A DNA stretch of 64,000 nucleotides, taken from the IMG/VR virus record IMGVR_UViG_2645727901_000008; one strand, given 5' to 3'. The notes under the pieces were generated by a model. That model ran no database searches, was not told the origin of the DNA, and was given only the letters and a program-made list of their open reading frames with translations. This DNA is from a virus (Duplodnaviria; Heunggongvirae; Uroviricota; Caudoviricetes). Shown piece after piece: positions 10,737-60,415 of the stretch (within the stretch, counting starts at the first letter, position 1; every line of letters starts with the position of its first letter). The position numbers and the translations under genes are program-made.

Positions 10737-10751
10737 AAATCACATACTCCC
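10737..10751 (+). promoter_or_regulatory. late-promoter-like motif (aaaatcacatactcc)
   Basis: Copy of the conserved motif (sense AAATCACAnACTG), 42-56 bp upstream of the CHAP gene ATG. Confidence 0.4.
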
Positions 10752-10792
10752 CATAGTTTGCCTACTTATTAACCCATGACCGGGAGAAAAAT

Positions 10793-11278
10793 ATGGCAAA
10801 CATTGAACCTCGCTGGCTAATTGAAGCCCGTAAGCACATTGGCCTGACTGAAATAAAAGGCGCTAAACACAACCCTGAAATCGTTCAGTTCTGGCGCGAC
10901 ATCAAGCGCGGCGGAATTAAAGACGATGAAACGCCGTGGTGCGCAGCATTTGTCGGTGCAATGCTGGAACGTGTAGGCATCCGCTCAACAAGATTTGAGT
11001 CGGCAAAATCCTATCTGGATTGGGGCGAGAAATTAGATACACCGGCATACGGATGTATCGTTGTATTTACCCGCGTAGGCGGTGGGCACGTAGGCTTCGT
11101 TGTCGGACGCCGTGCCAATGGCGATCTGCTTGTCCTGGGTGGGAACCAGGGGGATGCTGTTAATATTCGCGCATTCCCAACATCAAGAGTGTCTGGCTAT
11201 CGCTGGCCTGCTGGCGAACCACGCAATACCGCTCTGTTACCAGTCGGAGACGCAGCAACCTCAACTAATGAGGCATGA
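10793..11278 (+). CDS. CHAP/NlpC-P60-like peptidoglycan hydrolase (candidate endolysin)
   Basis: 161 aa with a Cys...His arrangement (TPWCAAFV ... GGGHVGFVV) typical of CHAP-like hydrolases. Good SD; late-type motif upstream. Confidence 0.55.
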   Translation: MANIEPRWLIEARKHIGLTEIKGAKHNPEIVQFWRDIKRGGIKDDETPWCAAFVGAMLERVGIRSTRFESAKSYLDWGEKLDTPAYGCIVVFTRVGGGHVGFVVGRRANGDLLVLGGNQGDAVNIRAFPTSRVSGYRWPAGEPRNTALLPVGDAATSTNEA

Positions 11279-11280
11279 AA

Positions 11281-11302
11281 AAAGCCCCGGCCAGGCCGGG
11301 GC
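11281..11302 (-). terminator. intrinsic terminator ending the immI-like operon
   Basis: Hairpin gccccgg/ccggggc; the U-run follows it only in the minus-strand orientation. Confidence 0.5.
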
Positions 11303-11310
11303 ATCACGCT

Positions 11311-11511
11311 TCAATTCACGATCCAATCATTACCGACTATATCAGCCGTCGATAAATCAACTTCCCGGATCTGGAGTCCATTAATACAAAACCATCCGGT
11401 AGTAGAGTAATTATCAGGCCAGGCCCATACACCAACACTCCATGCTTTACGGCGGCACACTTCAGCCTGTCCTTCCCTGATTTTTTTTACCGCCTGCATG
11501 ATGTCCATCAC
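11311..11511 (-). CDS. hypothetical small protein
   Basis: 66-aa ORF whose start overlaps the stop of the Rha-like gene; followed by the terminator. Confidence 0.3.
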   Translation of the reverse strand: MMDIMQAVKKIREGQAEVCRRKAWSVGVWAWPDNYSTTGWFCINGLQIREVDLSTADIVGNDWIVN

Positions 11512-12215
11512 TCACCTCCCCAACCGATCACCTGGAATTGCCCCATTTTGGGGTGATACCAGCGTTTTCCTCGGTGTTCAGCCTCCGACATCATCCGGTT
11601 AAAAGCATTCATGAAGGGAGATAAGGCCACGATGGAACGACGCGACAATACCCCCTCTGGAGTTAAAAACTCATGTGTATCGGTGGGGATCCGGTAAGCG
11701 TTAACCAGGTTGCGACATTTGGCTTCGGTCAGGCCGCATTTTGCCGCCAGCTGGCGGTAGCCAATGTAACCTTCCGGCATGTTGCCCTTCTTGATTTGCT
11801 CGACGGTTTCTACCACCTGGCTAACCTTTGACTCAACAACATGAAGCCGCTTTTGCTGCTGAACTGCATTTGCAGCCATTGCGGCGATCATCTCTATTTC
11901 GGTCAACGGCTGGCGTGCTTGTTCTTCCAGTTCGCGCCAGCGGTCCACCAGCCGGGCGGTGAATTCGGGAGAGAGCTGCGCGACGACGATAATGCTATCG
12001 CGCTTGCCTTGCTCGCCTTCGAAGACGTAAGCCTCAACACTACGTCGTAGTCCTAAGTTATTGATTTTTTCGAAAACCTCAATTTGAGGACGAACAATAA
12101 CGCCACCTTTGTCTAATGTCTCAATAGTGCGTTTCACATTGTCATGACGTTTTCCCACCAGCTCCGCGATCTCAATGCTGGTCATTGATGGCTTTTCGAG
12201 AATGCAGATATCCAT
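11508..12215 (-). CDS. Rha-family phage regulatory protein / antirepressor-like
   Basis: N-terminus MTSIEIAELVGKRHDNVKRTIETL matches the Rha/antirepressor N-terminal pattern. Sits in an operator - leader - small ORF - ant-like arrangement. Confidence 0.6.
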   Translation of the reverse strand: MDICILEKPSMTSIEIAELVGKRHDNVKRTIETLDKGGVIVRPQIEVFEKINNLGLRRSVEAYVFEGEQGKRDSIIVVAQLSPEFTARLVDRWRELEEQARQPLTEIEMIAAMAANAVQQQKRLHVVESKVSQVVETVEQIKKGNMPEGYIGYRQLAAKCGLTEAKCRNLVNAYRIPTDTHEFLTPEGVLSRRSIVALSPFMNAFNRMMSEAEHRGKRWYHPKMGQFQVIGWGGE

Positions 12216-12439
12216 CAGTGAGCCTCCGCAATGCCGGGATTGGTAATATTGCGATACCAGGGATTGGTGTTTGGTTGTGGGGAAGTGGAGAAACGACCAG
12301 TGAGAACGCCATACTGATCAGGGATCAGAGAACGGGCTTCTTTTTCAGTTGCGGCAATTGCGAAGTGATCGCAGTGTTTTTGCAGGGAGTGAAAACGCCA
12401 GATGAATTCTGGACGTGAGCAAGGATTGGCATTAACCAT
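12215..12439 (-). CDS. hypothetical small protein (icd-like position)
   Basis: 74-aa ORF whose stop overlaps the start of the Rha-like gene. The position resembles P1 icd upstream of ant; no sequence motif supports this. Confidence 0.3.
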   Translation of the reverse strand: MVNANPCSRPEFIWRFHSLQKHCDHFAIAATEKEARSLIPDQYGVLTGRFSTSPQPNTNPWYRNITNPGIAEAH

Positions 12440-12787
12440 AGTTACGGCCTCACTAACAGGTTTAACAACCTGCTACCCGCTGCTAAACAGGTGGCAGGAC
12501 GTGACGGGGTTAGCAGACTGGCGTTAGTGAAACCAGCAGGCCGAAGCCTCCCCATCACGCCCCACCATAATTTGGGCGTAACGCGGTTTTACGGACACAA
12601 AAATACCGCAATATCGGATATCTGCGGTTGTCCGCACTAACATTCAGGCTGCTAAACCCGGTCGCAGAATTTGCTACGACGACATGAATATAAGCCTGAA
12701 AACATGGAAGATCAACTAAAAATTTCAGCAATAGATGACTTCAGTCGATGATGCAGATCATACATTCCGATTTAGAAACGGCAAATT

Positions 12788-12805
12788 AATTTTCTAACAC
12801 AAAAT
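12788..12805 (+). promoter_or_regulatory. C1-operator-like motif copy (aattttctaacacaaaat)
   Basis: Motif at the head of the about 350-bp leader preceding the small ORF and Rha-like gene. Confidence 0.45.
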
Positions 12806-12853
12806 GTCGAGCGAGCATTTTCCGATCATTGGGATGTTTTGTAGACGCACAGG

Positions 12854-13816: not shown

Positions 13817-13876
13817 CAGATAGTTCCGTGCAAAAATCTATCTACCGTATAAATCTATGCCAGTGGATTTATACAC

Positions 13877-13911
13877 CAAAAAGCCGCTTCTCAGCGGCTT
13901 TTGCTTTTTTT
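13877..13911. terminator. bidirectional intrinsic terminator
   Basis: Hairpin aagccgc-ttctca-gcggctt followed by ttgcttttttt, with an A-run upstream. Confidence 0.6.
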
Positions 13912-13985
13912 GGCAGTCGCTACCGGAGCAGTGACCGCGATCCTACTCAATCACATCGGACAGGATCAACAGTGTATATAAATAC

Positions 13986-14005
13986 ACTATGTTAGAAATT
14001 TAATT
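13986..14005 (-). promoter_or_regulatory. C1-operator-like motif copy (reverse orientation)
   Basis: Reverse complement reads aaatttctaacatagt; adjacent to the palindrome agtgta-tataaa-tacact. Confidence 0.4.
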
Positions 14006-14016
14006 TCATGCAGCGG

Positions 14017-15015: not shown

Positions 15016-15028
15016 TATTTCCCTCCGG

Positions 15029-16711: not shown

Positions 16712-16751
16712 GAATCACCGCGAATTGTTTCCAGTTTCGCGGCAGCATAAT

Positions 16752-16765
16752 CAGTATGTGATTTG
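16752..16765 (-). promoter_or_regulatory. late-promoter-like motif (cagtatgtgatttg)
   Basis: Motif 41-55 bp upstream of the portal-like gene start. Confidence 0.4.
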
Positions 16766-16795
16766 ATAGGAGAGTTTTATTGGTGCTGTTAATGA

Positions 16796-17128: not shown

Positions 17129-17172
17129 AACTATACTCCATGTTATAAATTATCAAAGCTAAGTAAGTAAAA

Positions 17173-17730: not shown

Positions 17731-17855
17731 CGGTTATCCTCATTCATTATATTCTCAGCTAGTTTACATATTATTAAACAGGAACAAAAATGAATTATGC
17801 GCCCATCTTCAGATATGTTATGAACGCACAGAAAGAGCATTAAGTTACATTGATG

Positions 17856-19232: not shown

Positions 19233-19260
19233 CTATAGAGAAAGCTGTGAGTGTAAAAAG

Positions 19261-19271
19261 AGTGTGATTTA
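19261..19271 (-). promoter_or_regulatory. late-promoter-like motif (agtgtgattta)
   Basis: Core GTGATTT 29-39 bp upstream of the 458-aa gene start. Confidence 0.35.
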
Positions 19272-22983: not shown

Positions 22984-23023
22984 ACCCCTCCAGAAATAAC
23001 ATCTAATGCGCCACTAACTTAGT

Positions 23024-23038
23024 CAGTTTGTTATTTCC
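23024..23038 (-). promoter_or_regulatory. late-promoter-like motif (cagtttgttatttcc)
   Basis: 14 of 15 identical to the copies at 28729 and 60401; 41-55 bp upstream of the holin-like gene. Confidence 0.45.
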
Positions 23039-23666: not shown

Positions 23667-23834
23667 CTCGGTACCAGCGGTGAAAAGATCCCCCTGTTGA
23701 GTACGGCTAACACATGGAGTGCGCGCCAGACTTTCAACGGCGGGATCACCGGGGCGCTGACAGGGAACGCCGACACCGCGACGAAATTGAAAACAGCTCG
23801 AACAATCAACGGGGTGGGATTTGATGGTTCTAAA
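23650..23834 (+). repeat. left 185-bp inverted repeat of the invertible segment
   Basis: Reverse complement of 26839..27023, identical by direct reading. Confidence 0.85.
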
Positions 23835-24761
23835 GATATTACACTGACTCCTGAAAATCTTGGCTTGACGGATATCGTGTCTCAAGCTGGTAACGCCGTT
23901 CAGCGTTCCGGCGATAAAATGACCGGAGAACTGAAAATTGGTACGGTGAATGCGCTTCGGATATTTGATGAAGCATTCGGTCTTATTTTCCGTCGTTCAG
24001 AAGATTTTCTTCATTTCATTCCGACGGCTGAAGGACAAGGCGAAAACGGTGATATCGGCCCATTAAGGCCATTCGCTATAAATCTGAGAACAGGTGCTAT
24101 ATCTGTCAGCCACGGGGCCAAAATTGAAGGAGGTCTAGCTATTGGTGCTACTGATAACGCACTGGGTGAAAACTCCATTGTTCTGGGAGATAACGACACC
24201 GGATTTAGGCAAGATGGAGATGGTATTATTAGCTTCTATTCAAATGGTTCGCGCATCGGACATATTGATGGGTTAGGATTATATCTTTATAAAGATATTG
24301 AATCTAATGGCAGCAATTTTAGATTAAAAAGTAATTACCGCCACCACATTACATTCGCCAACGAAGACGGAAGTATTCGTATGTTTTTGTGGAAAGATAA
24401 CGGTGGTGATGGTGTTCATATTAATAACGGTTCAGATGGTGGTGGTGACTTCATCTTTAAAAGGGATGGCGGTTTCACTCTGGGAAGTGGTGCGCAAGTC
24501 GCGTCTAGTGGCGATATTTATGGTTCAGTGTGGGAAAACAACTGGTTAAGCACATGGCTGCATAATCATGTCGTTCGGGATATTCGTCTTGGCAGCATTG
24601 AACATAAAAACGTATGGCGCGACTACGGCTTTGGCGATGCGTCAGGTTATGTTTTAACAGCCGCAATTAACAGCAATGCGGATGATATTGTCGACACTGT
24701 TGCCAGAAGGCCAATTCAGAAATTGATTGGGGGAATATGGTACAACGTGGGGAGTGTTTAA
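23650..24761 (+). CDS. alternative tail-fibre C-terminal segment (Sv'), silent in this orientation
   Basis: In-frame coding starts at the repeat edge with no own start; shares [22 protein letters not shown]... with the expressed fibre and ends in the fibre-tip motif [16 protein letters not shown]. Confidence 0.75.
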
Positions 24762-24762
24762 G

Positions 24763-25290
24763 ATGATGCACCTGAAAAATATTAAGGCCGGGAATCCGAA
24801 AACACCGGAACAATACCAGCTAACTAAAAAAGCGGGCGTGGTATGGCTCTTTTGCGAAGATGGCAAGAACTGGTATGAGGAACAAAAGAATTTTCAGCCA
24901 GACACCATAAAAATTGCTTACGATGAGAACAACATCATCGTTGCTGTCAGTAAAGACGTTTCAACTATTAATCCTGAAGGGCTAAGCATAGTTGAAGTTC
25001 CTGATATTACGGCAAATCGTCGCGCAGACAATAACGGAAAATGGATGTTTCTGGATGGTAAAGTAGTAAAGAGGGAATATACAGAACAGGAACTGCAACA
25101 ACAGGCCGAATCACAAAAGGCCGCGTTACTTTCCGAAGCAGAAAGCGTTATTCAGCCACTGGAACGCGCCGTCAGGCTGAATATGGCGACGGATGAGGAA
25201 CGCGCACGACTGGAGTCATGGGAACGCTACAGTGTTCTGGTCAGCCGTGTGGATACGGCAAATCCTGAATGGCCACAAAAGCCTGAATAA
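24763..25290 (+). CDS. tail-fibre assembly protein (U'), alternative copy
   Basis: [23 protein letters not shown]... parallels the minus-strand assembly gene; start overlaps the Sv' stop. Confidence 0.8.
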
Positions 25291-25298
25291 AAATTAAG

Positions 25299-25318
25299 GC
25301 CCGATATCGGGCCTTGTC
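25299..25318. terminator. bidirectional terminator between convergent assembly genes
   Basis: Palindrome aaggcccgatatcgggcctt flanked by A/T runs. Confidence 0.6.
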
Positions 25319-25852
25319 TCATTCAGGTTGTTCGGGAAACGTTACTGGCAGGCAGGAGGTGTCTGTGGATTCGACTTTCTGCGCATAGAGCATCCACTCT
25401 GTTAATTTTTGTTTATTCTCGTCGGAAATGATGCCCAGCCGTAGCTGTGAGTCCCATAGCTGGGTTTTATCCCTGACGAGCTGTAGCAGGCTTTGCTTTT
25501 CATTTTCCGCCTGCTGCCTCTGCTCTTCCTCGGTATAAGTTCGCTTTACCACTACGCCATCTTTGAACATCCATTTACCAGAAATATCAGCCCGGCGATT
25601 TGCTGTAATATCAGGAACCTCAACGACGCTTGCGCCTTCTGGATTAATTGCTGAAACATCCTTTTCAATACAAATAATAACGCCGTTGTGGTCATAGACC
25701 ATTTTCAACGTATCAGACTGGAAATTCTTTTGTTCCTCATACCAGTTTTTTCCATCCTCTGTATAAAGCCATTTGATGTTAAATTGTTTCGTTAGCTGGT
25801 ATTGCTCTTTTGTTTTAGGGTTGCCCGCTGTAATATTTTTTAAGTGCATCAT
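25319..25852 (-). CDS. tail-fibre assembly protein (U), expressed copy
   Basis: 177 aa, MMHLKNITAGNPKTKEQYQLTKQ...; directly downstream of the fibre gene. Confidence 0.85.
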   Translation of the reverse strand: MMHLKNITAGNPKTKEQYQLTKQFNIKWLYTEDGKNWYEEQKNFQSDTLKMVYDHNGVIICIEKDVSAINPEGASVVEVPDITANRRADISGKWMFKDGVVVKRTYTEEEQRQQAENEKQSLLQLVRDKTQLWDSQLRLGIISDENKQKLTEWMLYAQKVESTDTSCLPVTFPEQPE

Positions 25853-25854
25853 AA

Positions 25855-28239
25855 TTAAATGCTCCCCGCGTTATACCACGTCCCATTAATACAATACTGA
25901 ATTGGCCTTGCCTGTGTTGTATCAATTAATTCATCACGGTTTCCATTAACTGAACCCGTAACGACATAACCTGACCTGTCAGACCAGCCGGGACCATTCC
26001 ATGTCTGAACAGATGACAGACCGCCCAGGCGAATACCTGTAATAAACCTTGAGTTACATTCTGCCTGTGTATATGCACCAACATCCCCCGCAGAGGGTTT
26101 GCGGGTTGTGGTGTAAAACTCTGACCAGTTAGCTTCAAAGCCATAACCATCACGCGCTGAACGATAAAAGATACCGCCGTTCTTATAATTCACGCGGAAC
26201 TGTACAGCAGGGCAACTCCCCGCATTCATATTAAAGTGGAGGATTAATGTCGATGCACCACTGATATCTGCATCATAAACGCCGCTATTCCAGTTCCAGC
26301 CAACAGCTTTATCATGTGCAACCCTGCTTCCTGTTTGCCCTAAAGCAAATGCAGGCTGCTGGTTTTTCGTATTGTAGTCTCTTCGCCAGCCAGGAGCATA
26401 AGCATCACCATGATTAATATAAGTGAATTGAGCGTTAGTGATTCCGCCGCCGCTGGACGTACTCGGAGTAGTAACGCGTATGGTCATTGCGCCGCGAGTG
26501 CCAATAACTTCCACCACAGCACCTGCAAGACAAATATTTCCGCAACCTGTATCTGTAATGACCTTATTATTTGCATAAGCCCATGAGCCTTTGCACATCC
26601 AGTAAGGATGGTTAAATGCCCCCTGACTCTCCAGCCACGAAATAAATTGCGCAGTTGTCCAGATCTGACTATCGCCACCAATATCCACCCATGCGCTATA
26701 TGCGCGGCAGGCACCAATATTTTTGGTGAAGGTATCTTTTCCCGGAATATCTGCGCCGTTCTGGTTTTTCTGTAATGCTCCTGCGGCTAATTCTACGGTT
26801 TGTTCAAGATTTAAATCTTCCGCCGTTAGCTCAATGTTTTTAGAACCATCAAATCCCACCCCGTTGATTGTTCGAGCTGTTTTCAATTTCGTCGCGGTGT
26901 CGGCGTTCCCTGTCAGCGCCCCGGTGATCCCGCCGTTGAAAGTCTGGCGCGCACTCCATGTGTTAGCCGTACTCAACAGGGGGATCTTTTCACCGCTGGT
27001 ACCGAGTTCTCTTAAACCAAGGTATTGGATAACGGCCAGTGTGCTTGTTTTAGCCAGAATATCGCGACCGACTGACGTTAAATCAGTCTGCGCTACCGTA
27101 TCCTTATCAATGAAATAAGGCAGTTTGTTTGCACCAGTCGCAAGACCAGCAAGCGCGGTTAAAGTTGCATCCAGAGGCTGTTTGCCTGCCAGCGCATTTG
27201 TCATTGTTGTCGCAAAGTTCGGGTCATTGCCCAGTGCTGCTGCAAGCTCATTCAGGGTATCAAGAGCTTCAGGTGATGAGCCGATCAATGCAGAGATAGC
27301 AGCTCTTACATAAGCGGTCGTAGCAATCTGCGTGTTATTCGTACCCTGTGCAGCGGTAGGCGCAGTAGGTATTCCCGTTAATGCAGGGCTTGCTAAAGGC
27401 GCTTTGAGAGCCAGGGCATTGTTGATAGTTGTGCTGAAATTCGGGTCGTTATTGATCGCAGCCGCTATTTCTTTCAGCGTGTCCATCGTTCCCGGAGCAC
27501 CATTGATAAGCGCATTTATAGCAGCATAGACAAAGGCCGCATTTGCGATCTGTGTGTTGTTTGTACCGGGTTCAGGTGTTGGCGAAGTCGGCGTACCTGA
27601 CAGATGCGGACTATCGAGCGGAGCTTTTGTATCAACCAAATCATGGAGAGTTTTGACAGCCAGAGGTGTAGCCGCTTTTCTTTCTTCTGTACTGCTTATT
27701 TCATTAGAGAATTCGACACCAACAGCACGGTTAACTCGGTATTTAAGCACAATCATTTCTTTAGTCACAGCCGTTGCGCCGCTAGGCACGATAACTCGAC
27801 ATAATTCAATTTGATTCTGCCCAATAGTATTGTCCGTACGCACGTAAATTCTTGCAGCGCTGACAGAAGATGCGCTATCTACCTGTGTCGTTTTTACACC
27901 ATGTTCAAAATTGGCTTCCAGCACAATAATGTTGGTAGCCCCAGCCTTTACCGAGACAGTCACATCTTCTATTTGCTGAACGGATATCTGAACATTATTT
28001 ACATCTACTGAAGCAGCCCCTTTACCTTCTGAGTTTTCAGAAGTTATACGGACGCTCAACCCTGTGCCGGGAACTGGTTCAAATCCACAGTAAAAGCCAG
28101 GCAAAACAATATTTTTAAGTTTTCTGTTAAGAGCCGAACTACTATAGAGTTCGAAATATTGAACATCAGCAAGCAACGGCTGTGAGACACCAGAGGATAG
28201 TGTCATTATGTTGTTCGTTTTATCAGCCCCCATAATCAA
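25855..28239 (-). CDS. tail fibre protein (constant part + current variable part)
   Basis: 794 aa with repeated PALTGIPTAPTAAQGTNNTQIATTAYV-type fibre motifs and C-terminal tip ARPIQYCINGTWYNAGSI. The 3' third (25855..26838) lies inside the invertible segment. Confidence 0.9.
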   Translation of the reverse strand: MIMGADKTNNIMTLSSGVSQPLLADVQYFELYSSSALNRKLKNIVLPGFYCGFEPVPGTGLSVRITSENSEGKGAASVDVNNVQISVQQIEDVTVSVKAGATNIIVLEANFEHGVKTTQVDSASSVSAARIYVRTDNTIGQNQIELCRVIVPSGATAVTKEMIVLKYRVNRAVGVEFSNEISSTEERKAATPLAVKTLHDLVDTKAPLDSPHLSGTPTSPTPEPGTNNTQIANAAFVYAAINALINGAPGTMDTLKEIAAAINNDPNFSTTINNALALKAPLASPALTGIPTAPTAAQGTNNTQIATTAYVRAAISALIGSSPEALDTLNELAAALGNDPNFATTMTNALAGKQPLDATLTALAGLATGANKLPYFIDKDTVAQTDLTSVGRDILAKTSTLAVIQYLGLRELGTSGEKIPLLSTANTWSARQTFNGGITGALTGNADTATKLKTARTINGVGFDGSKNIELTAEDLNLEQTVELAAGALQKNQNGADIPGKDTFTKNIGACRAYSAWVDIGGDSQIWTTAQFISWLESQGAFNHPYWMCKGSWAYANNKVITDTGCGNICLAGAVVEVIGTRGAMTIRVTTPSTSSGGGITNAQFTYINHGDAYAPGWRRDYNTKNQQPAFALGQTGSRVAHDKAVGWNWNSGVYDADISGASTLILHFNMNAGSCPAVQFRVNYKNGGIFYRSARDGYGFEANWSEFYTTTRKPSAGDVGAYTQAECNSRFITGIRLGGLSSVQTWNGPGWSDRSGYVVTGSVNGNRDELIDTTQARPIQYCINGTWYNAGSI
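26839..27023 (-). repeat. right 185-bp inverted repeat of the invertible segment
   Basis: Identical to the reverse complement of 23650..23834; encodes residues about 406-467 of the fibre. Confidence 0.85.
27009..27034. other. cix-like crossover site (right)
   Basis: ttctcttaaaccaaggtattggataa matches 21 of 26 positions of the hixL consensus as recalled. Confidence 0.6.
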
Positions 28240-28682: not shown

Positions 28683-28728
28683 ACGAACATAGCCCCTTCA
28701 TAAGCAATGAACCAAAGGAGAGTATGCT

Positions 28729-28743
28729 CAGTTTGTGATTTCC
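28729..28743 (-). promoter_or_regulatory. late-promoter-like motif (cagtttgtgatttcc)
   Basis: 15-mer identical to 60401..60415; 47 bp upstream of the R-like gene start, with a -10-like CATACT 2 bp downstream in sense orientation. Confidence 0.5.
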
Positions 28744-36058: not shown

Positions 36059-36105
36059 TTATTCCTCCGAAAAGCAGGTATCTGTTCATTTTCCAGAGGA
36101 TAGGG

Positions 36106-36119
36106 AGTGTGTGATTTGC
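36106..36119 (-). promoter_or_regulatory. late-promoter-like motif (agtgtgtgatttgc)
   Basis: Core TGTGATTT 48-61 bp upstream of the 273-aa gene. Confidence 0.4.
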
Positions 36120-44681: not shown

Positions 44682-44739
44682 GGTTAAGCCCTAAATTCGG
44701 GCGCGGCGTGAAGGTTCTTTTGACGGGCTAACAATACCT

Positions 44740-44753
44740 ACTTTGTGATTTAG
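44740..44753 (-). promoter_or_regulatory. late-promoter-like motif (actttgtgatttag)
   Basis: Core TTTGTGATTT 59-72 bp upstream of the capsid gene start. Confidence 0.4.
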
Positions 44754-47480: not shown

Positions 47481-47513
47481 TCTTCACCTCCTGGTTATCC
47501 TCCTATTGTCATC

Positions 47514-47528
47514 ACTTTGTTATTTCGT
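47514..47528 (-). promoter_or_regulatory. late-promoter-like motif (cactttgttatttcg)
   Basis: Motif 34-48 bp upstream of the PAAR gene start. Confidence 0.4.
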
Positions 47529-49097: not shown

Positions 49098-49098
49098 G

Positions 49099-49320
49099 TT
49101 CCTTTTTGGTGTTAAAATGGCATCAAAGCGACACCAAATGGGAGTCGTTAATGTACTGGTGCATACTTGGTGCTAATTTAGTGCTATTCAGGCGCAAAAC
49201 GTGTACCAGTATCCATCGGATTTGATGTTATACTTCCGGCATTAAGAATGGTGCTATTGCTGTACCGTTGATGTGTAAATGTGGTGCTGTTTTAGTGTAA
49301 AAATAGAGCCAAAATAAAGC
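49099..49320 (+). repeat. centromere-like repeat region upstream of parA
   Basis: Dense (T)GGTGC(T) and GTACCAG-type repeats, including acttggtgctaatttagtgctatt, aatggtgctattgctgtacc and tgtggtgctgttttagtg. Confidence 0.5.
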
Positions 49321-49326
49321 CGAGGT

Positions 49327-49974
49327 ATGGACATGATTATCCTGGTAGCAAGTCAAAAGGGAGGCTGTGGCAAGTCAACCACCAGCGTCAATATTTGTGC
49401 CGAGCTGGCCCGAAAAAACAAAGATGTCGTCTTGATTGATGCTGATAAGCAGGGAACGGCAGCTCGATGGGCGTCAGACCGTAATTCGTCCGAAGTGACA
49501 CCAGTTATTCATTGCGTCCAGAAGTTTGGAAATATTCGAGAAACTCTGCTCGATCTTAACAATCGATATGAATACGTGGTTGTTGATACCGCAGGTCGTG
49601 ATAGTAAAGAGATGCGCACAGGTATAACGGCGGCGGATATTCTATTGGTTCCATTCAGGCCGTCTCAGCCAGATTTGGACACGCTGGCACACTTTGTTGA
49701 GGTGTTTGAAGAGGCTTTGGATCTGATGCCTAATCCCAATATTAAGGCGTGCGCAGTCTTAACTATGGCCCCGTCAAATCCGGTTGTGAATGAAGCAAAT
49801 GAGGCCAAAGAGTATCTGGCAGAATATCCGCAACTGAAATTGCTGAAAACCATTATTCGCGATCGCAAGGTTTACCGCGACTGCATGGCTGAAGGAAAGG
49901 GTGTTGTTGAGATGGATAACGGTAAGGCGAAAGGTGAAATTCAGATGTTAGTTAAGGAGTTGCTAAGTGATTAA
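49327..49974 (+). CDS. parA: small ParA/ParF-type partition ATPase
   Basis: Deviant Walker A (KGGCGKST) in VASQKGGCGKSTTSVN and a VVDTAGRD segment; 215 aa. Confidence 0.8.
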   Translation: MDMIILVASQKGGCGKSTTSVNICAELARKNKDVVLIDADKQGTAARWASDRNSSEVTPVIHCVQKFGNIRETLLDLNNRYEYVVVDTAGRDSKEMRTGITAADILLVPFRPSQPDLDTLAHFVEVFEEALDLMPNPNIKACAVLTMAPSNPVVNEANEAKEYLAEYPQLKLLKTIIRDRKVYRDCMAEGKGVVEMDNGKAKGEIQMLVKELLSD

Positions 49975-50251
49975 ACGTCGAGAACCAGCTAAAGCGCCTA
50001 AGGCTACTGATCCGGAACTTGAGCGAAGAATTGAAGAGTTCGCCAGCAAAGCGGATTTAATCCCGGATGAAATTACAACGGGGAAGGTGCTTGATAAAGA
50101 TGCGCCGCGCGACTTTAAATCCATACGCGTGAGCTTTAATGAATATGAGTACGGGGTGCTCGATGCGTTAAGCAAAAAGCTTAACCGCAGCAAATTGAAC
50201 CTGATTCGACATGCCATCCTCATGCTTGCTGAGTCAGAGGATGCTAAATGA
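49967..50251 (+). CDS. ParG-like small centromere-binding protein
   Basis: 94-aa ORF overlapping the parA stop; C-terminus IRVSFNEYEYGVLDALSKKLNRSKLNLIRHAI is compatible with a ribbon-helix-helix fold. Confidence 0.55.
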   Translation: MIKRREPAKAPKATDPELERRIEEFASKADLIPDEITTGKVLDKDAPRDFKSIRVSFNEYEYGVLDALSKKLNRSKLNLIRHAILMLAESEDAK

Positions 50252-50370
50252 TACCGATTTGATGCCTTATTGGCGTCTATCGTGTACCAGTGCAATAATG
50301 TGTCAAAGTGGTGCCATAATGGTGTTAATATACAGCCATATTGATATCAAATTGACACTGTATCGGCATC

Positions 50371-50396
50371 AAAAAGCCCCAGGCGGGGCTTTTTCT
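50371..50396. terminator. bidirectional intrinsic terminator
   Basis: aaaaagcccc-aggc-ggggctttttc between the parA/G locus and the convergent dam gene. Confidence 0.65.
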
Positions 50397-51300
50397 ATTT
50401 GAGCGTTGCAATGATATCGTTAGCGACTATTCGCGTGGATGCTTTGCATGACACGGACCGTCTGGCTGGCATGTGGTACAGCTTAAAACCGTTTCTTTCG
50501 TACAATTCGCGAATTTTTGGCGCGCCACTGTTTGTTATTACTATCTTTGCACCGCGCTGGTGGGCCGCCACCAACAGTGATACAAGCCGTTTTTGTTCAT
50601 CGAAAAGGAAGCTATTTCCTGAATAGCTGGTAAATCCCTCTGTATCTGGCAGCGGCTCATACGGCGGGTCACAAAAAATCACATCGTCTTTACCAGCCGC
50701 CTCGATGACACCAGCAAAGTCACCTGATACAAAGGAAGTGTTTTTGAGTACGTCATCAGCCAAAAATGCCTTCATCTCTGCATGTGGGAAGTAGGGCGCT
50801 TTGTATTTGCCATACCCCACGTTGAACTCGCCATTTTGGTTGTACCGCGTTACGCCATTAAAACAGTGACGATTAAGGTACAAAAATGCGGCAGCATGAT
50901 GTAGTTGGTCATACTTTCCTCTGTTAAATGCCTCACGCACTTCGAGGTAAGCGTCAGCGTTGTTGTAATTTTTGAAAAAACTATATGACAGCGTGACGAG
51001 CGAATGTCCTTCTCGCTGCAATGTCTGATAGAAGTTAATCAGGTCACCGTTAATATCATTAAGCAGGTTGTGGCGAAATCCTGCATTCGTAAATACGGAA
51101 CCGCCACCAACGAATGGTTCTATTAACCGCTTACCGTGTGGTAGATGCTCAAGCACTGTAGGCAATTCTGAGAATTTACCACCTACCCATTTGAATATCG
51201 GACGCTCATATTCATCCGGAGTCCGAATGGTGCGCATATAGCTAATTTCAGCCATCGTATCCTGTTTTTCTATGGCTATGCTTGCTATAGATTTACTCAT
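50395..51300 (-). CDS. dam: DNA adenine methyltransferase (Dam family)
   Basis: KWVGGK…EPFVGGGSVF…FLYLNRHCFNG…FCDPPYEP matches Dam motifs; ATG 51300 has SD aaggggg. Confidence 0.85.
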   Translation of the reverse strand: MSKSIASIAIEKQDTMAEISYMRTIRTPDEYERPIFKWVGGKFSELPTVLEHLPHGKRLIEPFVGGGSVFTNAGFRHNLLNDINGDLINFYQTLQREGHSLVTLSYSFFKNYNNADAYLEVREAFNRGKYDQLHHAAAFLYLNRHCFNGVTRYNQNGEFNVGYGKYKAPYFPHAEMKAFLADDVLKNTSFVSGDFAGVIEAAGKDDVIFCDPPYEPLPDTEGFTSYSGNSFLFDEQKRLVSLLVAAHQRGAKIVITNSGAPKIRELYERNGFKLYHMPARRSVSCKASTRIVANDIIATLK

Positions 51301-52862: not shown

Positions 52863-52871
52863 GTTTCACCA

Positions 52872-52910
52872 ATTGTGTTAGAAAATTCTATTCAATTATC
52901 TAACACAATT
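52872..52910. promoter_or_regulatory. palindromic pair of C1-operator-like motifs
   Basis: ccaattgtgttagaaaatt…aattatctaacacaattgg: two motif copies in inverted orientation directly upstream of the rdgC start. Confidence 0.5.
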
Positions 52911-52921
52911 GGATGTGTTTT

Positions 52922-53575: not shown

Positions 53576-54552
53576 TTGTTCGGCACTCCTAATATCATTC
53601 GTGTTGTGTAGCCTACGCGGTCTTCAAAGTGCGCAACATTTTTTACTATCAGCTTGCGGGGCATTGATTCATCAATGCGGTTTTCCTGGTCATAGCGGTA
53701 TACGATAATCTCTATTACCATTCCCGGTTTTATATCCGGATTGCCTGCGACTTCTATATCCATTTTGGGGACGAGAGACAGCTGCATATTGCGAAGAGTT
53801 TCCATATCAGAATCGGATATATAACGCACTGGGAGTGAGCTATCGCCATATTCGACGTAGCCATCGGTCATGGAATACCCAACAAAACGATATTGATTCT
53901 TTGCTGTTGTCGCATGTTCCTGTTGGAGTAGGCGCATTTTGGACAAAGTGTATTCTGCTTTAGGGTTATTCCCCTCGTAGGTAAATGATGGCGTTTGCTT
54001 CATCAGATCAGCCAGGGTGTAAAAGTTAAATTCCCCACGGCATACCCAACATAATGCACCTTTGTCTCGCGCTATCTGCGAGAGCATTTTTGACGGTTTG
54101 TCACCGGCATTCAGATGATATGTAACTGCGCGTTTTAGCACGCTGCTGGTAATTTTAAGCTTGCCGGAATATGCCTTGAATATAGCGTCTGGTGTTTTGT
54201 TGGTATGTAAATTTGTGCGCGGGGAGGGGATCTTAAACCTGCGCACGTCTTCACTGACAGCAATAACGGTAACAACATCACCAGCCAGCATTGCAGACGT
54301 AACAAAGAAGTCTGTTTTAAAAGTGCCTGCATTACCGTTTGGATCGCCCATTTCAGCCACCAGCGATGCACCGTATTTGGCTTTCCAGTCATCAATTACG
54401 GTGCCGGTAGCGTCATGAATTTCCAGTTTTAGCAAAGGGGCTTTGAGGCTGGTTTTTTCTACATATACTGCGGTAAAAATCCAGTCTCGTGGCACTTTGT
54501 TATCGTTAATGAGCACTGACTGTAGAAAATATTGTTGTAACTCCTGGGCCAC
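53572..54552 (-). CDS. putative baseplate hub protein (gpD-like), hypothetical
   Basis: 326-aa ORF immediately upstream of and overlapping the gpV-like gene. Position-based. Confidence 0.35.
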   Translation of the reverse strand: MAQELQQYFLQSVLINDNKVPRDWIFTAVYVEKTSLKAPLLKLEIHDATGTVIDDWKAKYGASLVAEMGDPNGNAGTFKTDFFVTSAMLAGDVVTVIAVSEDVRRFKIPSPRTNLHTNKTPDAIFKAYSGKLKITSSVLKRAVTYHLNAGDKPSKMLSQIARDKGALCWVCRGEFNFYTLADLMKQTPSFTYEGNNPKAEYTLSKMRLLQQEHATTAKNQYRFVGYSMTDGYVEYGDSSLPVRYISDSDMETLRNMQLSLVPKMDIEVAGNPDIKPGMVIEIIVYRYDQENRIDESMPRKLIVKNVAHFEDRVGYTTRMILGVPNK

Positions 54553-54555
54553 TTA

Positions 54556-56111: not shown

Positions 56112-56162
56112 AAGCATCCTCAAAGGTCGATTTATCAGGTATCGAGGGTGCATTGTCTGGAG

Positions 56163-56173
56163 ATTGTGATTTC
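56163..56173 (-). promoter_or_regulatory. late-promoter-like motif (attgtgatttc)
   Basis: Core TTGTGATTTC upstream of the 55320..56111 operon. Confidence 0.35.
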
Positions 56174-56181
56174 AATTCATA

Positions 56182-56226
56182 TCCCAACATGGGACTAAAG
56201 TGCTTTACATTGTCCCATATTGGGAC
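56182..56226 (+). promoter_or_regulatory. two palindromic operators in the higBA promoter
   Basis: TCCCA-ACA-TGGGA (56182..56194) and GTCCCA-TAT-TGGGAC (56212..56226), with a -10-like TATACT at 56231..56236. Confidence 0.5.
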
Positions 56227-56256
56227 TACTATACTTTCAGAGAGAAGGAATCTGTG

Positions 56257-56559
56257 ATGAAAATAATTTCGGTAAAAACACTAAGGGATTTCTGGGCGAA
56301 GAATCCCGATGCAGAACAGCCATTAAAGGCATGGGTTGATGAAGCAACAAAGGCTGACTGGAAAAATCCGGCTGAGATCAAAGAACAGTACCGGACAGCC
56401 AGCATCCTTAAAAACAGGCGCGTGGTGTTCAATATTAAGGGAAATGATTACAGGTTAATTGTCGCAATTGCTTATCAGCGAGGATGGATGTTCGTTAAGT
56501 TTATTGGAACACATAAGGAATACGATGCCATTGAAGCGGATACAATAGAACTGGAGTAA
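56257..56559 (+). CDS. higB: HigB toxin (RelE/ParE superfamily)
   Basis: MKIISVKTLRDFWAKNPDAEQ…VVFNIKGNDYRLIVAIAYQRGWMFVKFIGTHKEYD; the THKEYD motif and fold pattern match E. coli HigB as recalled; SD gaagga. Confidence 0.85.
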   Translation: MKIISVKTLRDFWAKNPDAEQPLKAWVDEATKADWKNPAEIKEQYRTASILKNRRVVFNIKGNDYRLIVAIAYQRGWMFVKFIGTHKEYDAIEADTIELE

Positions 56560-56562
56560 ATC

Positions 56563-56922
56563 ATGAACATTAAACCTATCCGTACAGAACAAGATTATGA
56601 GGCCGCACTGCGTGCGGTCGAACCGATGTTCGATAACGAACCGGAAATGAACACACCGGAAGGCGATTTCTTTGAAGTAATGTGCCTGCTCATTGAAGAG
56701 TACGAGAAAAAGCATTACCCAATTGAGCCACCATCACCTATTGAAGCCATTAAATTCCGTATGGAACAGCAAGGGCTGACCGTGAAGGATCTGGAACCGG
56801 CGATTGGTAAGTCAAATCGAGTTTACGAAGTGCTTAATGGGACACGAAATTTGACGTTACCTATGATTCGTCGTTTACATGCCCAGTTTGGTATTCCACT
56901 GGAAAGTCTGGTTGGTGTTTAA
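56563..56922 (+). CDS. higA: HigA antitoxin (HTH)
   Basis: 119 aa, 3 bp after higB; C-terminal HTH-like segment LTVKDLEPAIGKSNRVYEVLNG. Confidence 0.8.
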   Translation: MNIKPIRTEQDYEAALRAVEPMFDNEPEMNTPEGDFFEVMCLLIEEYEKKHYPIEPPSPIEAIKFRMEQQGLTVKDLEPAIGKSNRVYEVLNGTRNLTLPMIRRLHAQFGIPLESLVGV

Positions 56923-56984
56923 GTTTGGCGGTCTGGAGGACCGCTTTTTATCTAAAATAAAAATTAGAAGGTTTGATAGCTTGT

Positions 56985-57722
56985 ATGGGCAAAAATTCAT
57001 CAACAGAAAACACATCTACAATTGACTCAATCAAGGGCACAATGGATGAAGCCATAAAAGATAAATTATTTAATAAATTATTTGCATATGTGGTGGTTTC
57101 ATTTTTTGTCGTTAATTGGCAAGAAATACTAATTTTGTTTAAATCTAAATATGATATATACACAACACTGTCTATAGTATGGGTAGGGGATAAATATCAA
57201 ATCCCTTATTTTGGAACCTTCATTGTATCTCCGTTTTTAGCTCACTTTGTGATGCCGTTTATATATGGCACTATTGCGTCCATAGTGATGCCTTATATTA
57301 CTATGCGTATATCAAAACTCACTGGTAGAAATTATGCGCAAATAAGATACATTGACCATGAATTTGACTCAGAAGAGAAAGCAAGAGTAAAGGCGTTGCT
57401 GAGAAACCTAAAGAAAAAAGAGGAAGAGCTTTTAAAATTAGAGGAACAAATAGAAGGTCAACAAAAAATACTGAATACAATCGAAGAAAAGAAGAGAGAG
57501 ATTGAGAGTGCCAGAGTGGCTCTGTATCACGGTATAAAAGTAATTGTTGATATATATAAAGCAAAAGATAAAAGGATTTCCACCAAAGAAGATTTTGCCG
57601 ATTTATTAAAAGCAATTGAAGAAAGTGATTTTTATAAAGACACTGGGTTGTGGGGTATTAATAAATTAATAGATGACGTGGAGACAATATATGAGTCTCA
57701 ATCGACATCAAAGGACAAGTAA
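56985..57722 (+). CDS. membrane protein with C-terminal coiled coil (cargo)
   Basis: Very AT-rich; hydrophobic helices FAYVVVSFFVVNW and FIVSPFLAHFVMPFIYGTIASIVMPYI, then a K/E-rich coiled coil. Start codon uncertain. Confidence 0.5.
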   Translation: MGKNSSTENTSTIDSIKGTMDEAIKDKLFNKLFAYVVVSFFVVNWQEILILFKSKYDIYTTLSIVWVGDKYQIPYFGTFIVSPFLAHFVMPFIYGTIASIVMPYITMRISKLTGRNYAQIRYIDHEFDSEEKARVKALLRNLKKKEEELLKLEEQIEGQQKILNTIEEKKREIESARVALYHGIKVIVDIYKAKDKRISTKEDFADLLKAIEESDFYKDTGLWGINKLIDDVETIYESQSTSKDK

Positions 57723-57726
57723 TATA

Positions 57727-57752
57727 AAAGGCGGGATAACCGCCTTTGTTGT
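57727..57752. terminator. bidirectional intrinsic terminator
   Basis: aaaggcgg-gataa-ccgccttt between convergent genes. Confidence 0.55.
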
Positions 57753-57755
57753 AAA

Positions 57756-58952
57756 TTAAGAACCTTTCTTCACATACTCCATGAACATTTTTTCAGCTTG
57801 TGCAGGTGGTGTTCCTGCCATGACCAGCGCATCAATGAACGCCTGCTTCTTCAGTGCGAACTGATCGGCCAGGCGTTGCTGAAGCTCCTTGTTTTTCTGT
57901 TTCTCACGTTGCAACGCCGCTTCTTTTGCTGCCGCCCGTTTTTTCTGTGCGTCTGACAACTTTCTGGCCTTGGTCAGTTGGTCACGTAGCTTGTCAATCT
58001 TGCCGTTGTCCTTTGCCAGTTTTGTGCTTAAAGCGGCCTGGCGCTTCTGATAGAGCCTCCATTCGCGCTTGGCAGCGTCAACGTTTGTTTTACTGTTGCG
58101 ATTGCGATTAAACTCCCTCTCGTCTTCTTTTGAGAAGTGTTTGGTTGTACGGCGGCGATCGTCACCAAATGCAATTTGCGTTGCGGCCTTTTGTAACGCA
58201 CGAGCAATACTCATTTGCCAACTAGCGGACTGTAACCGCGTCATTGAGTGGATCACGTGTTTACAGGCGACGCCTTGTAGCTTAGGGTTACGAACTTTTG
58301 GATAGGCGTATTCTTTTGGCGGGGCCAGGGCAAAGTTACCCGCAGTAGCGATGTAACGATACCAGTATTGATGACGACCACAGTCACAATCGAAAGACAC
58401 CCGCCCGGCGCACAGTGATTTAGTGATTTTCAGAGCTGATTTATCGTCTTCTGCGATGTCATCGACCATCTGATCCCATTCTTCAAAGCGTATCCGGACG
58501 ATATGGTGCTGGTGGACGGATATATCCGATGCTTCTACGCGGATATGAATCACGTTGTGGCGAAGAGATACGGGTGTAGCTCTTTTGATACCAGATCCGT
58601 CATCCACGGCGTTATTTGCACGCTTAATATCGATTGCCTGGCTGGATGCCACCAGCTGGGCGTATGTGATGCCAGCCGTCTTGCTGTCATATTTTTCGCG
58701 TGTTTTACTCCGTAGCTTTTCGAAACCTTTCAGGTCGTCTCGCGTGAAGAACGTGCCGCCTTTTTTCTTCCCTAACTTGAGAATATCTTCGGCGGATTTG
58801 TTCCTCAGTCTACCTGGCGTCAGCGTCCGGTGAGCTTGTCGGCGCTTACGGGTTTGTTCTTTCCTGATAAGGTCGAATAAACGCGTGAAGTCCTTAGAGG
58901 ACAGGCCGTCAGTGATATAGCGCCCGTCCTGGTTTTTCAGGAAATCAGGCAT
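57756..58952 (-). CDS. Cys/His-motif protein with lysine-rich coiled-coil C-terminus
   Basis: 398 aa with FDCDCGRH…CKHVIH, a possible zinc-binding motif, and a K/A/Q-rich coiled coil; start overlaps the upstream gene by 8 nt. Confidence 0.5.
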   Translation of the reverse strand: MPDFLKNQDGRYITDGLSSKDFTRLFDLIRKEQTRKRRQAHRTLTPGRLRNKSAEDILKLGKKKGGTFFTRDDLKGFEKLRSKTREKYDSKTAGITYAQLVASSQAIDIKRANNAVDDGSGIKRATPVSLRHNVIHIRVEASDISVHQHHIVRIRFEEWDQMVDDIAEDDKSALKITKSLCAGRVSFDCDCGRHQYWYRYIATAGNFALAPPKEYAYPKVRNPKLQGVACKHVIHSMTRLQSASWQMSIARALQKAATQIAFGDDRRRTTKHFSKEDEREFNRNRNSKTNVDAAKREWRLYQKRQAALSTKLAKDNGKIDKLRDQLTKARKLSDAQKKRAAAKEAALQREKQKNKELQQRLADQFALKKQAFIDALVMAGTPPAQAEKMFMEYVKKGS

Positions 58953-59274
58953 TTTCTATCTCCGGTTCCGCGCTCGCGTAATCACGGATCTTGTTCCTCA
59001 GCCATGCCACATCAGGAAGAGTTAACGTGGTCCCGGCGGGCATTTCTTCCATTTCTGACTCATGGCCCACCAGCACCCGGAATACCCAGCGCAAATCTGC
59101 ATTGCCATACGCCCTGTAGGCTGCAAGGTCTGAACGATATACTTCATCAATCTTTATCGTGTACTGGAAATTATCAGAGTGATACTCCGATACCCGCTTA
59201 ATCATTTCCTGGTGAAACAGCGCACGAAAAATATCGTCTTCAATGTACCTATCGTCGAGTCTGCTATAGCCCAT
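58945..59274 (-). CDS. hypothetical protein
   Basis: 109-aa ORF translationally coupled to the 398-aa gene. Confidence 0.45.
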   Translation of the reverse strand: MGYSRLDDRYIEDDIFRALFHQEMIKRVSEYHSDNFQYTIKIDEVYRSDLAAYRAYGNADLRWVFRVLVGHESEMEEMPAGTTLTLPDVAWLRNKIRDYASAEPEIENA

Positions 59275-59467
59275 AACAAAGCCTCTCAGTCATAACATGG
59301 GGGAAACTGTATGCAGGGTGTGAAATGCGAGAAACAGACAGGCCACCAGTTCAGGGGGATGTGGTTCATAAATCCCCTCACTGGTGACAAGTGACTTTCA
59401 TTAATCTTTATGCGGGGGCCAGCTTCATTTGCTGGCATTAGATTAAAAATTAAACGGAGTGAATGAC

Positions 59468-59601
59468 ATGGATGTTATTCTAGAATTGTTAAAGCTTATT
59501 GATCTGTTTATGAACGCCTCATTGACCACTCAAATACTGGCGTCAATATTTTTGTTACTCTTCTACCTGGTATTGAGGGAGTTAACAAAGCTACTAATGT
59601 G
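59468..59601 (+). CDS. unannotated small hydrophobic peptide (44 aa)
   Basis: Below the ORF-track cutoff. ATG 59468 with SD ggag; encodes MDVILELLKLIDLFMNASLTTQILASIFLLLFYLVLRELTKLLM, one predicted TM helix; the stop abuts a convergent gene. Confidence 0.3.
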
Positions 59602-59602
59602 A

Positions 59603-60256
59603 TCAAAGTATCACGGTATCTTCATCAACTTCTTTCCCAGCCAGTGACTTTGGCTGGGAGGTGCCTGCTTTAACTTTTTCATGCCCAATAATGGAAAGGA
59701 ACGAAGCGAGTATGCCTGTTTTTTGCTCTTTCTCGACTGTACCGGTCATCTGCTCTACATAATCTGCACTGGCAACGTTGTGGTATACGGTCGCGTAGCA
59801 ACACAGGATCATCAGAATATGCTCCGGCCTGATATCCTGCCAGTTCACCCTGTAGACTTCTTCTCCGTTACCGTTGTATTCGGTATCAACGATAGAGTCG
59901 GGGATTTCGAAAGCACCTTTGTTATTTTGCGGCAGGGATAATAGTTTCTGGAGTTTTAACTCTCTGTATCTTTCCATCCCGACGATGATTGCTGCTCTTC
60001 CATCGGCATGACGGGTCTTGAGAGTCACCTGACTTGCTCCGGTGCCAGCGGAGATCGTTGGCGTAATTTCGTCTACCAGTACCTTAAATTTGCTTTTCCG
60101 CAGGGCTGCTATAGCTGGAGGAATTTTTTGCTTTTGCTCCAATGCTGACGCGGGAAGGGGTTTTACTTCGTTAATAATGAGAGCACCGTCTTTCAGTATT
60201 GCAGTGAGCATTTGAGGCTTGCTGGTGGTCAGGCTGAATATTGCGATCTTTTCCAT
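59603..60256 (-). CDS. hypothetical protein
   Basis: About 218 aa from ATG 60256 (MEKIAIF…) with strong SD ggaggaagg; a 15-mer late-type motif lies 145 bp upstream. Confidence 0.5.
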   Translation of the reverse strand: MEKIAIFSLTTSKPQMLTAILKDGALIINEVKPLPASALEQKQKIPPAIAALRKSKFKVLVDEITPTISAGTGASQVTLKTRHADGRAAIIVGMERYRELKLQKLLSLPQNNKGAFEIPDSIVDTEYNGNGEEVYRVNWQDIRPEHILMILCCYATVYHNVASADYVEQMTGTVEKEQKTGILASFLSIIGHEKVKAGTSQPKSLAGKEVDEDTVIL

Positions 60257-60400
60257 TGTCCTTCCTCCACGGATGACGGATACAAAAAAAGGCCGCACAT
60301 GGCGGCCTGCTTTGGCGTTATGACTCCCTACCGCGCTTCGGCTGAAAGTTAATCGTCAAAAGAACCTTCAACGGGAGCCGTTAGCGCGATGGATTATGTG

Positions 60401-60415
60401 CAGTTTGTGATTTCC
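60401..60415 (-). promoter_or_regulatory. late-promoter-like motif (cagtttgtgatttcc)
   Basis: Identical 15-mer to 28729..28743; CATAAT follows 4 bp downstream in sense orientation. Confidence 0.45.

Follow-up and report, generated by a model that had tools for sequence, protein, structure and literature searches.

The window analysed here, the whole 64,000-nucleotide (nt) stretch of the IMG/VR virus record IMGVR_UViG_2645727901_000008, belongs to a tailed-phage element related to Escherichia phage D6 (MF356679). This report concerns a short sequence motif, 11 strong copies of which head the late (morphogenesis and lysis) operons of the element, and an RNA leader found downstream of one of the copies. 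Architecture, statistics, placement and conservation of the motif were computed, as was the presence of an activator gene in the near-identical D6. D6 is a plasmid prophage of the P1 type and a distant relative of P1. Its sequence is 97.9% identical to the window between positions 28000 and 36500, and D6 and the entire window are colinear at 90 - 98% identity, with the exception of four segments that are non-colinear with D6 or absent from it: the invertible tail-fibre variable region (23797-26833), a segment near the par genes (49115-50406), a toxin-antitoxin region (56172-57764) and everything past the simB-like gene (60576-64000). Because of these four segments the element is a relative of D6 with mosaic replacements, not D6 itself. 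More than 120 plasmid records from E. coli, Salmonella and Shigella share regions of the window. The D6 record is annotated with coding sequences, tRNAs and recombination sites, and with zero promoters. Besides D6, the comparison included the plasmid pEF-4 of E. fergusonii, a plasmid of Citrobacter portucalensis (pCit), P1 (NC_005856), Cronobacter phage JK004, capsid loci from GTDB and mat loci from IMG/VR.

All 11 sites have the same layout. A 13-nt box is followed, after exactly 2 nt, by a -10-like hexamer of the form xAxxxT. The original prediction, which was made from the sequence alone and described ten copies of the motif, had placed the hexamer 2 - 7 bp downstream of the box, but the spacing is constant. 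The consensus of the box is AAAT[C/A]ACA[A/C/T][A/T][C/G]T[G/C], which is asymmetric and lacks dyad symmetry. In the aligned copies A1, A2, A3, T4, A6, C7, A8 and T12 are invariant. In the hexamers, positions 2 (A) and 6 (T) are the same in all 11 copies, and position 1 is T in six of them. When the hexamer is set at -12 to -7, the box falls at about -27 to -15 and is centered at -21.

Two of the sites are back to back, with their boxes 23 bp apart. The first (10693..10713, minus strand) precedes the darB unit, which contains homologues of darB, ulx, pmgM, pmgR and pmgS. Its box, AAATAACATTCTC, occupies positions 10701-10713, its hexamer is TACCCT, and it scores 20.1 bits with a position weight matrix (PWM) built for the motif; it is conserved in D6 and pEF-4 and is a variant in pCit. 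The second (10737..10757; box AAATCACATACTC, hexamer CATAGT) is on the plus strand and heads a gene for a CHAP/peptidoglycan hydrolase (10793..11278). This copy is conserved in D6, pEF-4 and pCit. The remaining sites are on the minus strand. The site of the portal-pro operon (16744..16764; box AAATCACATACTG, hexamer TATGCT) is at the position of LPpro of P1. A ddrB-like gene, the '458-aa gene' of the original prediction, is preceded by a site at 19250..19270 (box AAATCACACTCTT at 19258-19270, hexamer TACACT), which has 3 mismatches to AAATCACAAACTG, is conserved in D6 and pEF-4, and is a variant in pCit. The lydA-lydB-hdf-darA-ddrA operon has its site at 23016..23036 (box AAATAACAAACTG, hexamer TAAGTT; P1 LPdar position). 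The site of the R-S-U tail-fibre genes (28721..28741; box AAATCACAAACTG, hexamer CATACT; P1 LPs position) lies outside the invertible segment. The site at 36097..36117 (box AAATCACACACTC, hexamer TATCCT) heads pmgB-sit-pmgA-bplA-16 and is the counterpart of P1 LPsit, and that at 44731..44751 (box AAATCACAAAGTA, hexamer TATTGT; P1 LP23 position) heads the genes from capsid gene 23 through tub. The hexamer GACAAT is common to the sites of upfC, which encodes a PAAR protein, with upfB and the genes downstream (47505..47525; box AAATAACAAAGTG), and of genes 7-24-6-5 (56152..56172; box AAATCACAATCTC). The last of the 11 sites is upstream of mat, at the position of P1 LPmat (60393..60413; box AAATCACAAACTG, hexamer CATAAT). 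A weak variant, ATTTCACACCCTGcaTACAGT, is found upstream of the gene 26 homologue, at the position of P1 LP26 (59306..59326, minus strand). It consists of box ATTTCACACCCTG, the spacer ca and the hexamer TACAGT, scores 10.4 bits and is a candidate for a weaker late promoter. It is kept in D6 and pEF-4 in spite of the different upstream context there.

The ten copies of the original prediction all exist. Nine of them match AAATCACAAACTG with 2 or fewer mismatches, the other being the copy of the ddrB-like gene. The mat copy, the tenth of that list, was said to be identical to the copy of the R gene, and the 13-mers at 28729 and 60401 are indeed the same. The list was incomplete, however: the PWM scan adds the strong darB copy and the weak gene 26 variant, both of which had been overlooked, bringing the total to 11 - 12.

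Short A/T-rich words recur randomly, and the motif could in principle be a chance or neutral repeat, such as a remnant of a duplicated intergenic segment. With 2 or fewer mismatches, AAATCACAAACTG has 10 matches in the window compared to 2.7 expected, and none of 100 shuffled sequences reaches 10. Nine of these matches are copies of the original prediction. The other (34559-34571) is within the coding sequence of sit, has no -10 hexamer and is probably due to chance. The 8-nt core of the box occurs 19 times in the window; 11 of these copies have the full architecture and are exactly the intergenic ones, while the other eight lack it. Isolated words of this kind speak for a chance repeat. The strict pattern AAATMACA-N3-T-N4-A-N3-T finds the 11 sites and nothing else in 64 kb, compared to an expected 0.18, a figure that is partly circular because the pattern was built after the sites had been seen. 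The lack of matches in coding sequence is still informative despite this circularity.

The placement of the sites also speaks against chance. All 11 are fully within the non-coding 10.2% of the genome, as mapped on the D6 annotation (P about 1e-11), and all are oriented toward the next gene. The original prediction had claimed this agreement in orientation, the plus-strand hydrolase copy included, and had named frequent occurrence inside coding regions or random orientation as evidence against itself; neither was found. The distance from the end of the -10 hexamer to the start codon is 24 - 51 nt at ten sites and 136 nt at mat. The genome-wide PWM search that had been proposed was carried out, and it shows the sites to be confined to the late region, upstream of late operons. 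A scan of the whole D6 genome gives the same 11 sites, with the next best score at 11 bits, and no site in the early, lysogeny and plasmid regions.

The flanking sequences of the copies are unrelated to each other, the spacing and orientation are fixed, and the sites stand out as conserved islands at orthologous positions, where the flanks have diverged to background. The DNA of pEF-4 is 70 - 83% identical to that of the window, and the motif is present in it at all 11 orthologous places and once more before lpa. In a comparison anchored on the motif, the window and pEF-4 have an identity of 0.92 over the box and 0.98 over the -10 hexamer, but only 0.52 - 0.55 over the 40 nt upstream. The corresponding values for the more diverged pCit are 0.68 and 0.62, compared to 0.21 - 0.24 upstream. 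A chance or neutral repeat is thus an exceedingly improbable explanation of the motif.

The late promoters of P1 provide the closest known parallel. P1 has 11 late promoters, in which a 9-bp inverted repeat is the site of the activator Lpa (PMC10695390), and Lpa acts together with the host protein SspA (PMC1891329). In the P1 annotation these promoters consist of a 9-nt '-22 region', 4 nt and a -10 element, and read (a/g)ac-AAGT[G/T]ACTT-nnnn-TAnnnT. Like them, the sites described here have a σ70-type -10 element and lack a -35 element. The best TTGACA match at a spacing of 16 - 18 nt has only 1 - 4 of 6 positions at the 11 sites. A σ70 consensus scan of the 10 - 30 kb region did not include the box-linked -10 hexamers of that stretch among its matches. 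Complete σ70 promoters at the sites were therefore rejected by both the scan and the spacing check. The centers of the boxes coincide at -21 (-25 to -17 in P1, -27 to -15 here), and about a dozen copies head morphogenesis and lysis operons in either phage. Seven of the copies are at the positions of annotated P1 late promoters, namely LPmat (mat), LPpro (portal), LPdar (lydA), LPs (R), LPsit (pmgB-sit), LP23 (gene 23) and, for the weak variant, LP26 (gene 26). The hydrolase copy is a functional analog of P1 LPlyz, whereas the promoters of darB, ddrB, upfC and gene 7 are additional to those of P1. D6 has no late promoter between lpa and pacA, which overlap, and no counterpart of P1 LPpac.

The boxes themselves are quite different. 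That of P1 is a 9-nt palindrome, AAGTNACTT, with a 4-nt spacer, whereas the D6-type box is asymmetric, has 13 nt and a 2-nt spacer. With 1 or fewer mismatches the P1 palindrome has 30 matches in the window compared to 26.5 expected, and none of them is at the promoters. Exact copies of the P1 box at 4743 and 59389 are not promoter-like. The divergent LP26 and LPpmgL of P1 share one palindromic box, whereas the divergent darB and hydrolase units here have two separately oriented boxes, which is consistent with an asymmetric site. The original prediction had seen the P1 late-promoter architecture in the motif. This is correct for the element near -21/-22, the -10 hexamer and the missing -35, but the box is not that of P1. 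A full-text literature search found nothing on late promoters of D6, although the D6 genome paper may already describe them.

The Lpa family of activators is represented in D6, where orf4, which overlaps pacA, is annotated as a homolog of lpa. Its product and P1 Lpa have 31% identity (E 1e-16). The Lpa proteins of D6, P1 and pCit match the Pfam family PF25716 (BPP1_LPA) and phrog_1704 over their full length, and so does pEF-4 Lpa for PF25716. D6 Lpa is 80% identical to the pEF-4 protein and 37% identical to that of pCit. No solved structure of Lpa was found. In pEF-4 a good late box, AAATAACACACTGatTAACAT, is directly upstream of lpa (54123-54143 of the record, minus strand; 4123-4143 of the extracted locus), which would permit auto-activation and late expression of pacAB. 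D6 has a degenerate late box, TTTTAACATTCTCatTATCAT, upstream of lpa (about 4560-4600 of the locus), and pCit has its own late box before pacA.

The operon heads of pCit, and the position before pacA, carry the sequence AAA[G/T/A][T/C]ACA[G/A]AC[T/C]G followed by 2 nt and TAnnnT. The same 13 + 2 + 6 architecture is found at the same operon heads in pCit-type elements and in D6-clade prophages of Pantoea and Enterobacter, but positions 4 - 5 are GT or TT instead of TC, and position 9 is G instead of A. Among the capsid loci from GTDB, the 13 + 2 architecture occurs in Pantoea, Enterobacter and Citrobacter. Across these relatives, D6 and pEF-4, positions 4 - 5 vary (TC, TT or GT). The 9 + 4 architecture, AAGTGACTT plus 4 nt, is found in P1, in P1-like elements of Escherichia and Kluyvera and in Cronobacter phage JK004, with variants in two more lineages. 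Because the 13 + 2 architecture belongs to the D6 clade and the 9 + 4 architecture to the P1 clade, the class of the box tracks the phage clade and the divergence of Lpa.

The sites could be late promoters and yet be read by a factor other than Lpa, such as a second activator of the phage, RNA polymerase in a modified form or some factor of the host. The box is asymmetric and has almost no in-register sequence in common with the P1 Lpa box, which leaves room for such a reader. The core ATCACA (TCACA) also resembles a CRP half-site. However, the partner half-site TGTGA, expected 6 nt upstream, is absent from all 11 copies (0 - 3 of 5 positions match), so that the dyad TGTGA-N6-TCACA can be excluded, and a CRP site centered at -21 would fail to activate transcription. 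The D6 annotation contains neither a sigma factor nor another late regulator. The center of the box, the missing -35 element and the positions of the operons all fit the P1 Lpa system, and the type of the box shifts together with the divergence of Lpa. A reader other than Lpa is for these reasons unlikely.

An operator function was also considered. D6 encodes a homolog of the C1 repressor, and the C1 operators of P1 are, according to the P1 annotation, asymmetric 17-mers present at many scattered sites, a description that the motif resembles. However, the copies precede structural and lysis operons and not early genes, and the motif takes the place of part of a promoter instead of overlapping a complete -35/-10 promoter. 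The 17-nt P1 C1 operator, ATTGCTCTAATAAATTT, has no match in the window with 3 or fewer mismatches. Furthermore, a different word, AATTTCTAACA, marks the heads of early genes, where P1 has its C1 operators. The possibility that the motif is the operator of a C1-type repressor of D6 is therefore very small. The word AATTTCTAACA occurs 8 times in the window compared to 1.5 expected, at 432, 588, 2882 and 12789 on the plus strand and at 13990, 17141, 52876 and 57323 on the minus strand. In the window it precedes repL and rdgC, and in D6 and pEF-4 it precedes lpa; all of these are places of C1 operators in P1. The word is a candidate for the D6-type C1 operator.

The motif copies are most probably (at about 85%) the late promoters of a D6-like plasmid prophage, of the Lpa-dependent type and with a box that is specific to the clade. 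Several observations weigh against this interpretation. Five of the 11 -10 hexamers begin with C or G instead of T. When aligned by the -10 element, the box has little sequence in common with that of P1 and is not palindromic, and the binding mode of D6 Lpa may differ from that of P1 Lpa. The lpa gene is outside the 64-kb window, and we infer its presence in this element from D6 and the other relatives. Finally, a terminator-like hairpin comes between the mat copy and its gene, so that not every copy acts simply as the promoter of the gene behind it. The same hairpin limits the original claim that the late transcription units can be drawn from the sequence, because it bars simple units running from a promoter to the next gene.

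By analogy to P1, the Lpa homolog would bind the 13-nt box late in infection and would recruit the host RNA polymerase holoenzyme to a promoter that has no -35 element. The host co-activator SspA, which is required in P1, may be involved here as well. The lysis, head, tail, tail-fibre and anti-restriction operons would be switched on as a result. Of this scheme, we infer the binding of Lpa, the dependence on SspA, the late timing and the transcription start sites.

The mat copy differs from the others in having a conserved leader region of 136 nt up to the start codon. The predicted transcript begins with a conserved leader RNA of about 105 nt (60284..60386, minus strand), and the ATG of mat is at 60256. 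An outer stem is predicted between 60373-60379 and 60322-60328. Inside it is hairpin A, whose arms TTGAAGGTT and AACTTTCAG (60363-60371 and 60342-60350) are connected by the loop CTTTTGACGATT. The leader ends in a terminator-like hairpin, AGGCCGC-CATGT-GCGGCCT (60290-60308), with a T-run (60284-60290), about 30 nt before the ATG. The layout of a late box, a leader of 105 - 129 nt, a GC hairpin with a T-run, a Shine-Dalgarno sequence and an ATG is found at 74 loci, the P1 clade included. These are 72 of 79 IMG/VR mat loci, the window and JK004.

A block of the leader (60354-60370) is perfectly complementary to the ~17 nt with which the capsid mRNA is predicted to begin, CGTCAAAAGAACCTTCA (44709..44725, minus strand). 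Apart from its own locus, the leader has no match in the window longer than this 17-mer, and the next best is 11 nt. The complementarity extends over 17 nt in D6, 16 nt in pEF-4 and, with additional partial pairing, 10 nt in pCit. Covariation was examined in 33 distinct pairs of mat and capsid leaders, each pair coming from the same contig. The position of the paired block is constant, but at least eight lineages of the P1/D6 supergroup, one of them P1, have different sequences in both partners. Examples are CGTCAAAAGAACCTTCA, GTCAAAAATTCC, CGCCAAAAAACCTC, GCCAAAAGTA, GAAAAGGGAT (P1) and TGAAAAGAGT (JK004). In a fixed register most of the 15 columns are paired, and many show two or more types of Watson-Crick pairs and changes compatible with G:U pairing. 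The energies of short-segment duplexes range from -22.7 to -37.8 kcal/mol for cognate pairs, compared to means of -23.6 (standard deviation 5.2) for non-cognate and -19.8 (standard deviation 4.2) for shuffled pairs.

In ten capsid leaders of the D6 clade, a stem is predicted between the 3' end of the block (TTCAC in the window) and the region around the GTG with which the capsid gene starts. It is supported by a single compensatory change, from C:G to U:A. Because the target block is the 5' strand of the start-codon stem, it is suggested that the leader RNA would open this stem, which otherwise sequesters the start codon, and would thereby serve as an anti-antisense activator of capsid translation. 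The effect could also run the other way, with the capsid mRNA relieving termination ahead of mat.

Covariation lends little support to a structure within the leader itself. RNAalifold gave no usable consensus for the leaders of all lineages, which align poorly. For those of the D6 clade its support was limited to the terminator and one small hairpin, with zero compensatory changes. The z-score of the single-sequence fold is only -1.46. RNAduplex comparisons of the whole leader with 80-nt windows of the genome were uninformative, because long discontinuous duplexes swamp the signal. The leader matched no family in Rfam, and nothing on a mat-leader RNA was found in a full-text literature search.

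Two further proposals are offered tentatively, as possibilities somewhat short of an even chance. The mat copy may drive a terminated RNA of ~105 nt that pairs with the very start of the capsid mRNA (gene 23) and possibly activates capsid translation. Separately, the Lpa family may have split into at least two classes of DNA recognition, one for palindromic 9 + 4 sites and the other for asymmetric 13 + 2 sites. The C4 antisense RNA of the P1 immI region is a precedent within this phage family, being a small antisense RNA that acts in trans by pairing with the leader of a phage mRNA, but the proposed mat-leader RNA would originate from a late promoter and target the 5' end of the capsid mRNA. 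The capsid leader is also similar to that of rpoS, the target of DsrA and RprA: its start codon is predicted to be masked by a stem, and the 5' strand of this stem is where the small RNA would pair. As in the phage lambda PR'-tR' 6S RNA, a promoter-proximal terminator follows a late promoter. However, no Q-like antiterminator was identified here, and the terminator is present at the mat promoter only.

Two other features were noted at mat. In P1 (NC_005856, 2678-2830) the annotated start of mat at 2716 falls within the conserved leader and precedes a terminator-like hairpin, AAGCCGCC-GCTG-GTGGCTT, with a T-rich run, TTCTTTTTT, after it. Homology to the Mat proteins of the D6 clade begins at the ATG at 2827, and for this reason the P1 start may be mis-annotated. 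Furthermore, all D6-clade lineages have a conserved TTGAC(A/C) 9 - 11 nt ahead of the mat late box (about 60422-60430 in the window, minus strand). Its distance of 24 - 26 nt from the -10 hexamer is too great for a normal -35 element; P1 has TTGACA at this place, annotated as the -35 element of Pmat.

The window contains several other repeated words and RNA elements. A C4 antisense RNA is recognized by Rfam at 12487-12572 (minus strand, 70 bits) and a C4 a1/b1 target element at 12641-12693 (minus strand, 51.5 bits). Together they constitute an immI module of the P1 type, with the icd/antirepressor genes downstream of it. The Chi octamer, GCTGGTGG, is the top match of an unbiased scan for 8-mers, with 34 copies in 64 kb compared to 1.6 expected. 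Its copies (21 on the minus and 13 on the plus strand; e.g. 459, 523, 1599 and, at the far end, 60660) are nearly absent between 14.6 and 34.4 kb. Another 8-mer, AGGCCGCA/TGCGGCCT, has 11 matches compared to 1.9 expected, at 131, 3804, 7588, 11731, 14290, 19182, 27534, 34022, 56600, 58182 and 60290. It was rejected as a shared terminator stem. Most copies are within coding sequence, and only that at 60290 is in the terminator of the mat leader, the others appearing unrelated to terminators.

Judged by their sequence, the D6-type sites are a known kind of promoter with a different, clade-specific recognition box. The assumption that relatives of P1 can be annotated by the box of P1 is thereby corrected. 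Plasmid prophages of the D6 type occur commonly in E. coli, Salmonella and Shigella, and the promoter signature would allow late transcription units to be mapped throughout the clade. P1 Lpa with AAGTNACTT and D6 Lpa with AAATCACA... would make a natural specificity-swap pair for studying how the Lpa family reads DNA. If true, the pairing of the mat leader with the capsid mRNA would be an unrecognized post-transcriptional layer in the late gene expression of the P1 family, including P1 itself.

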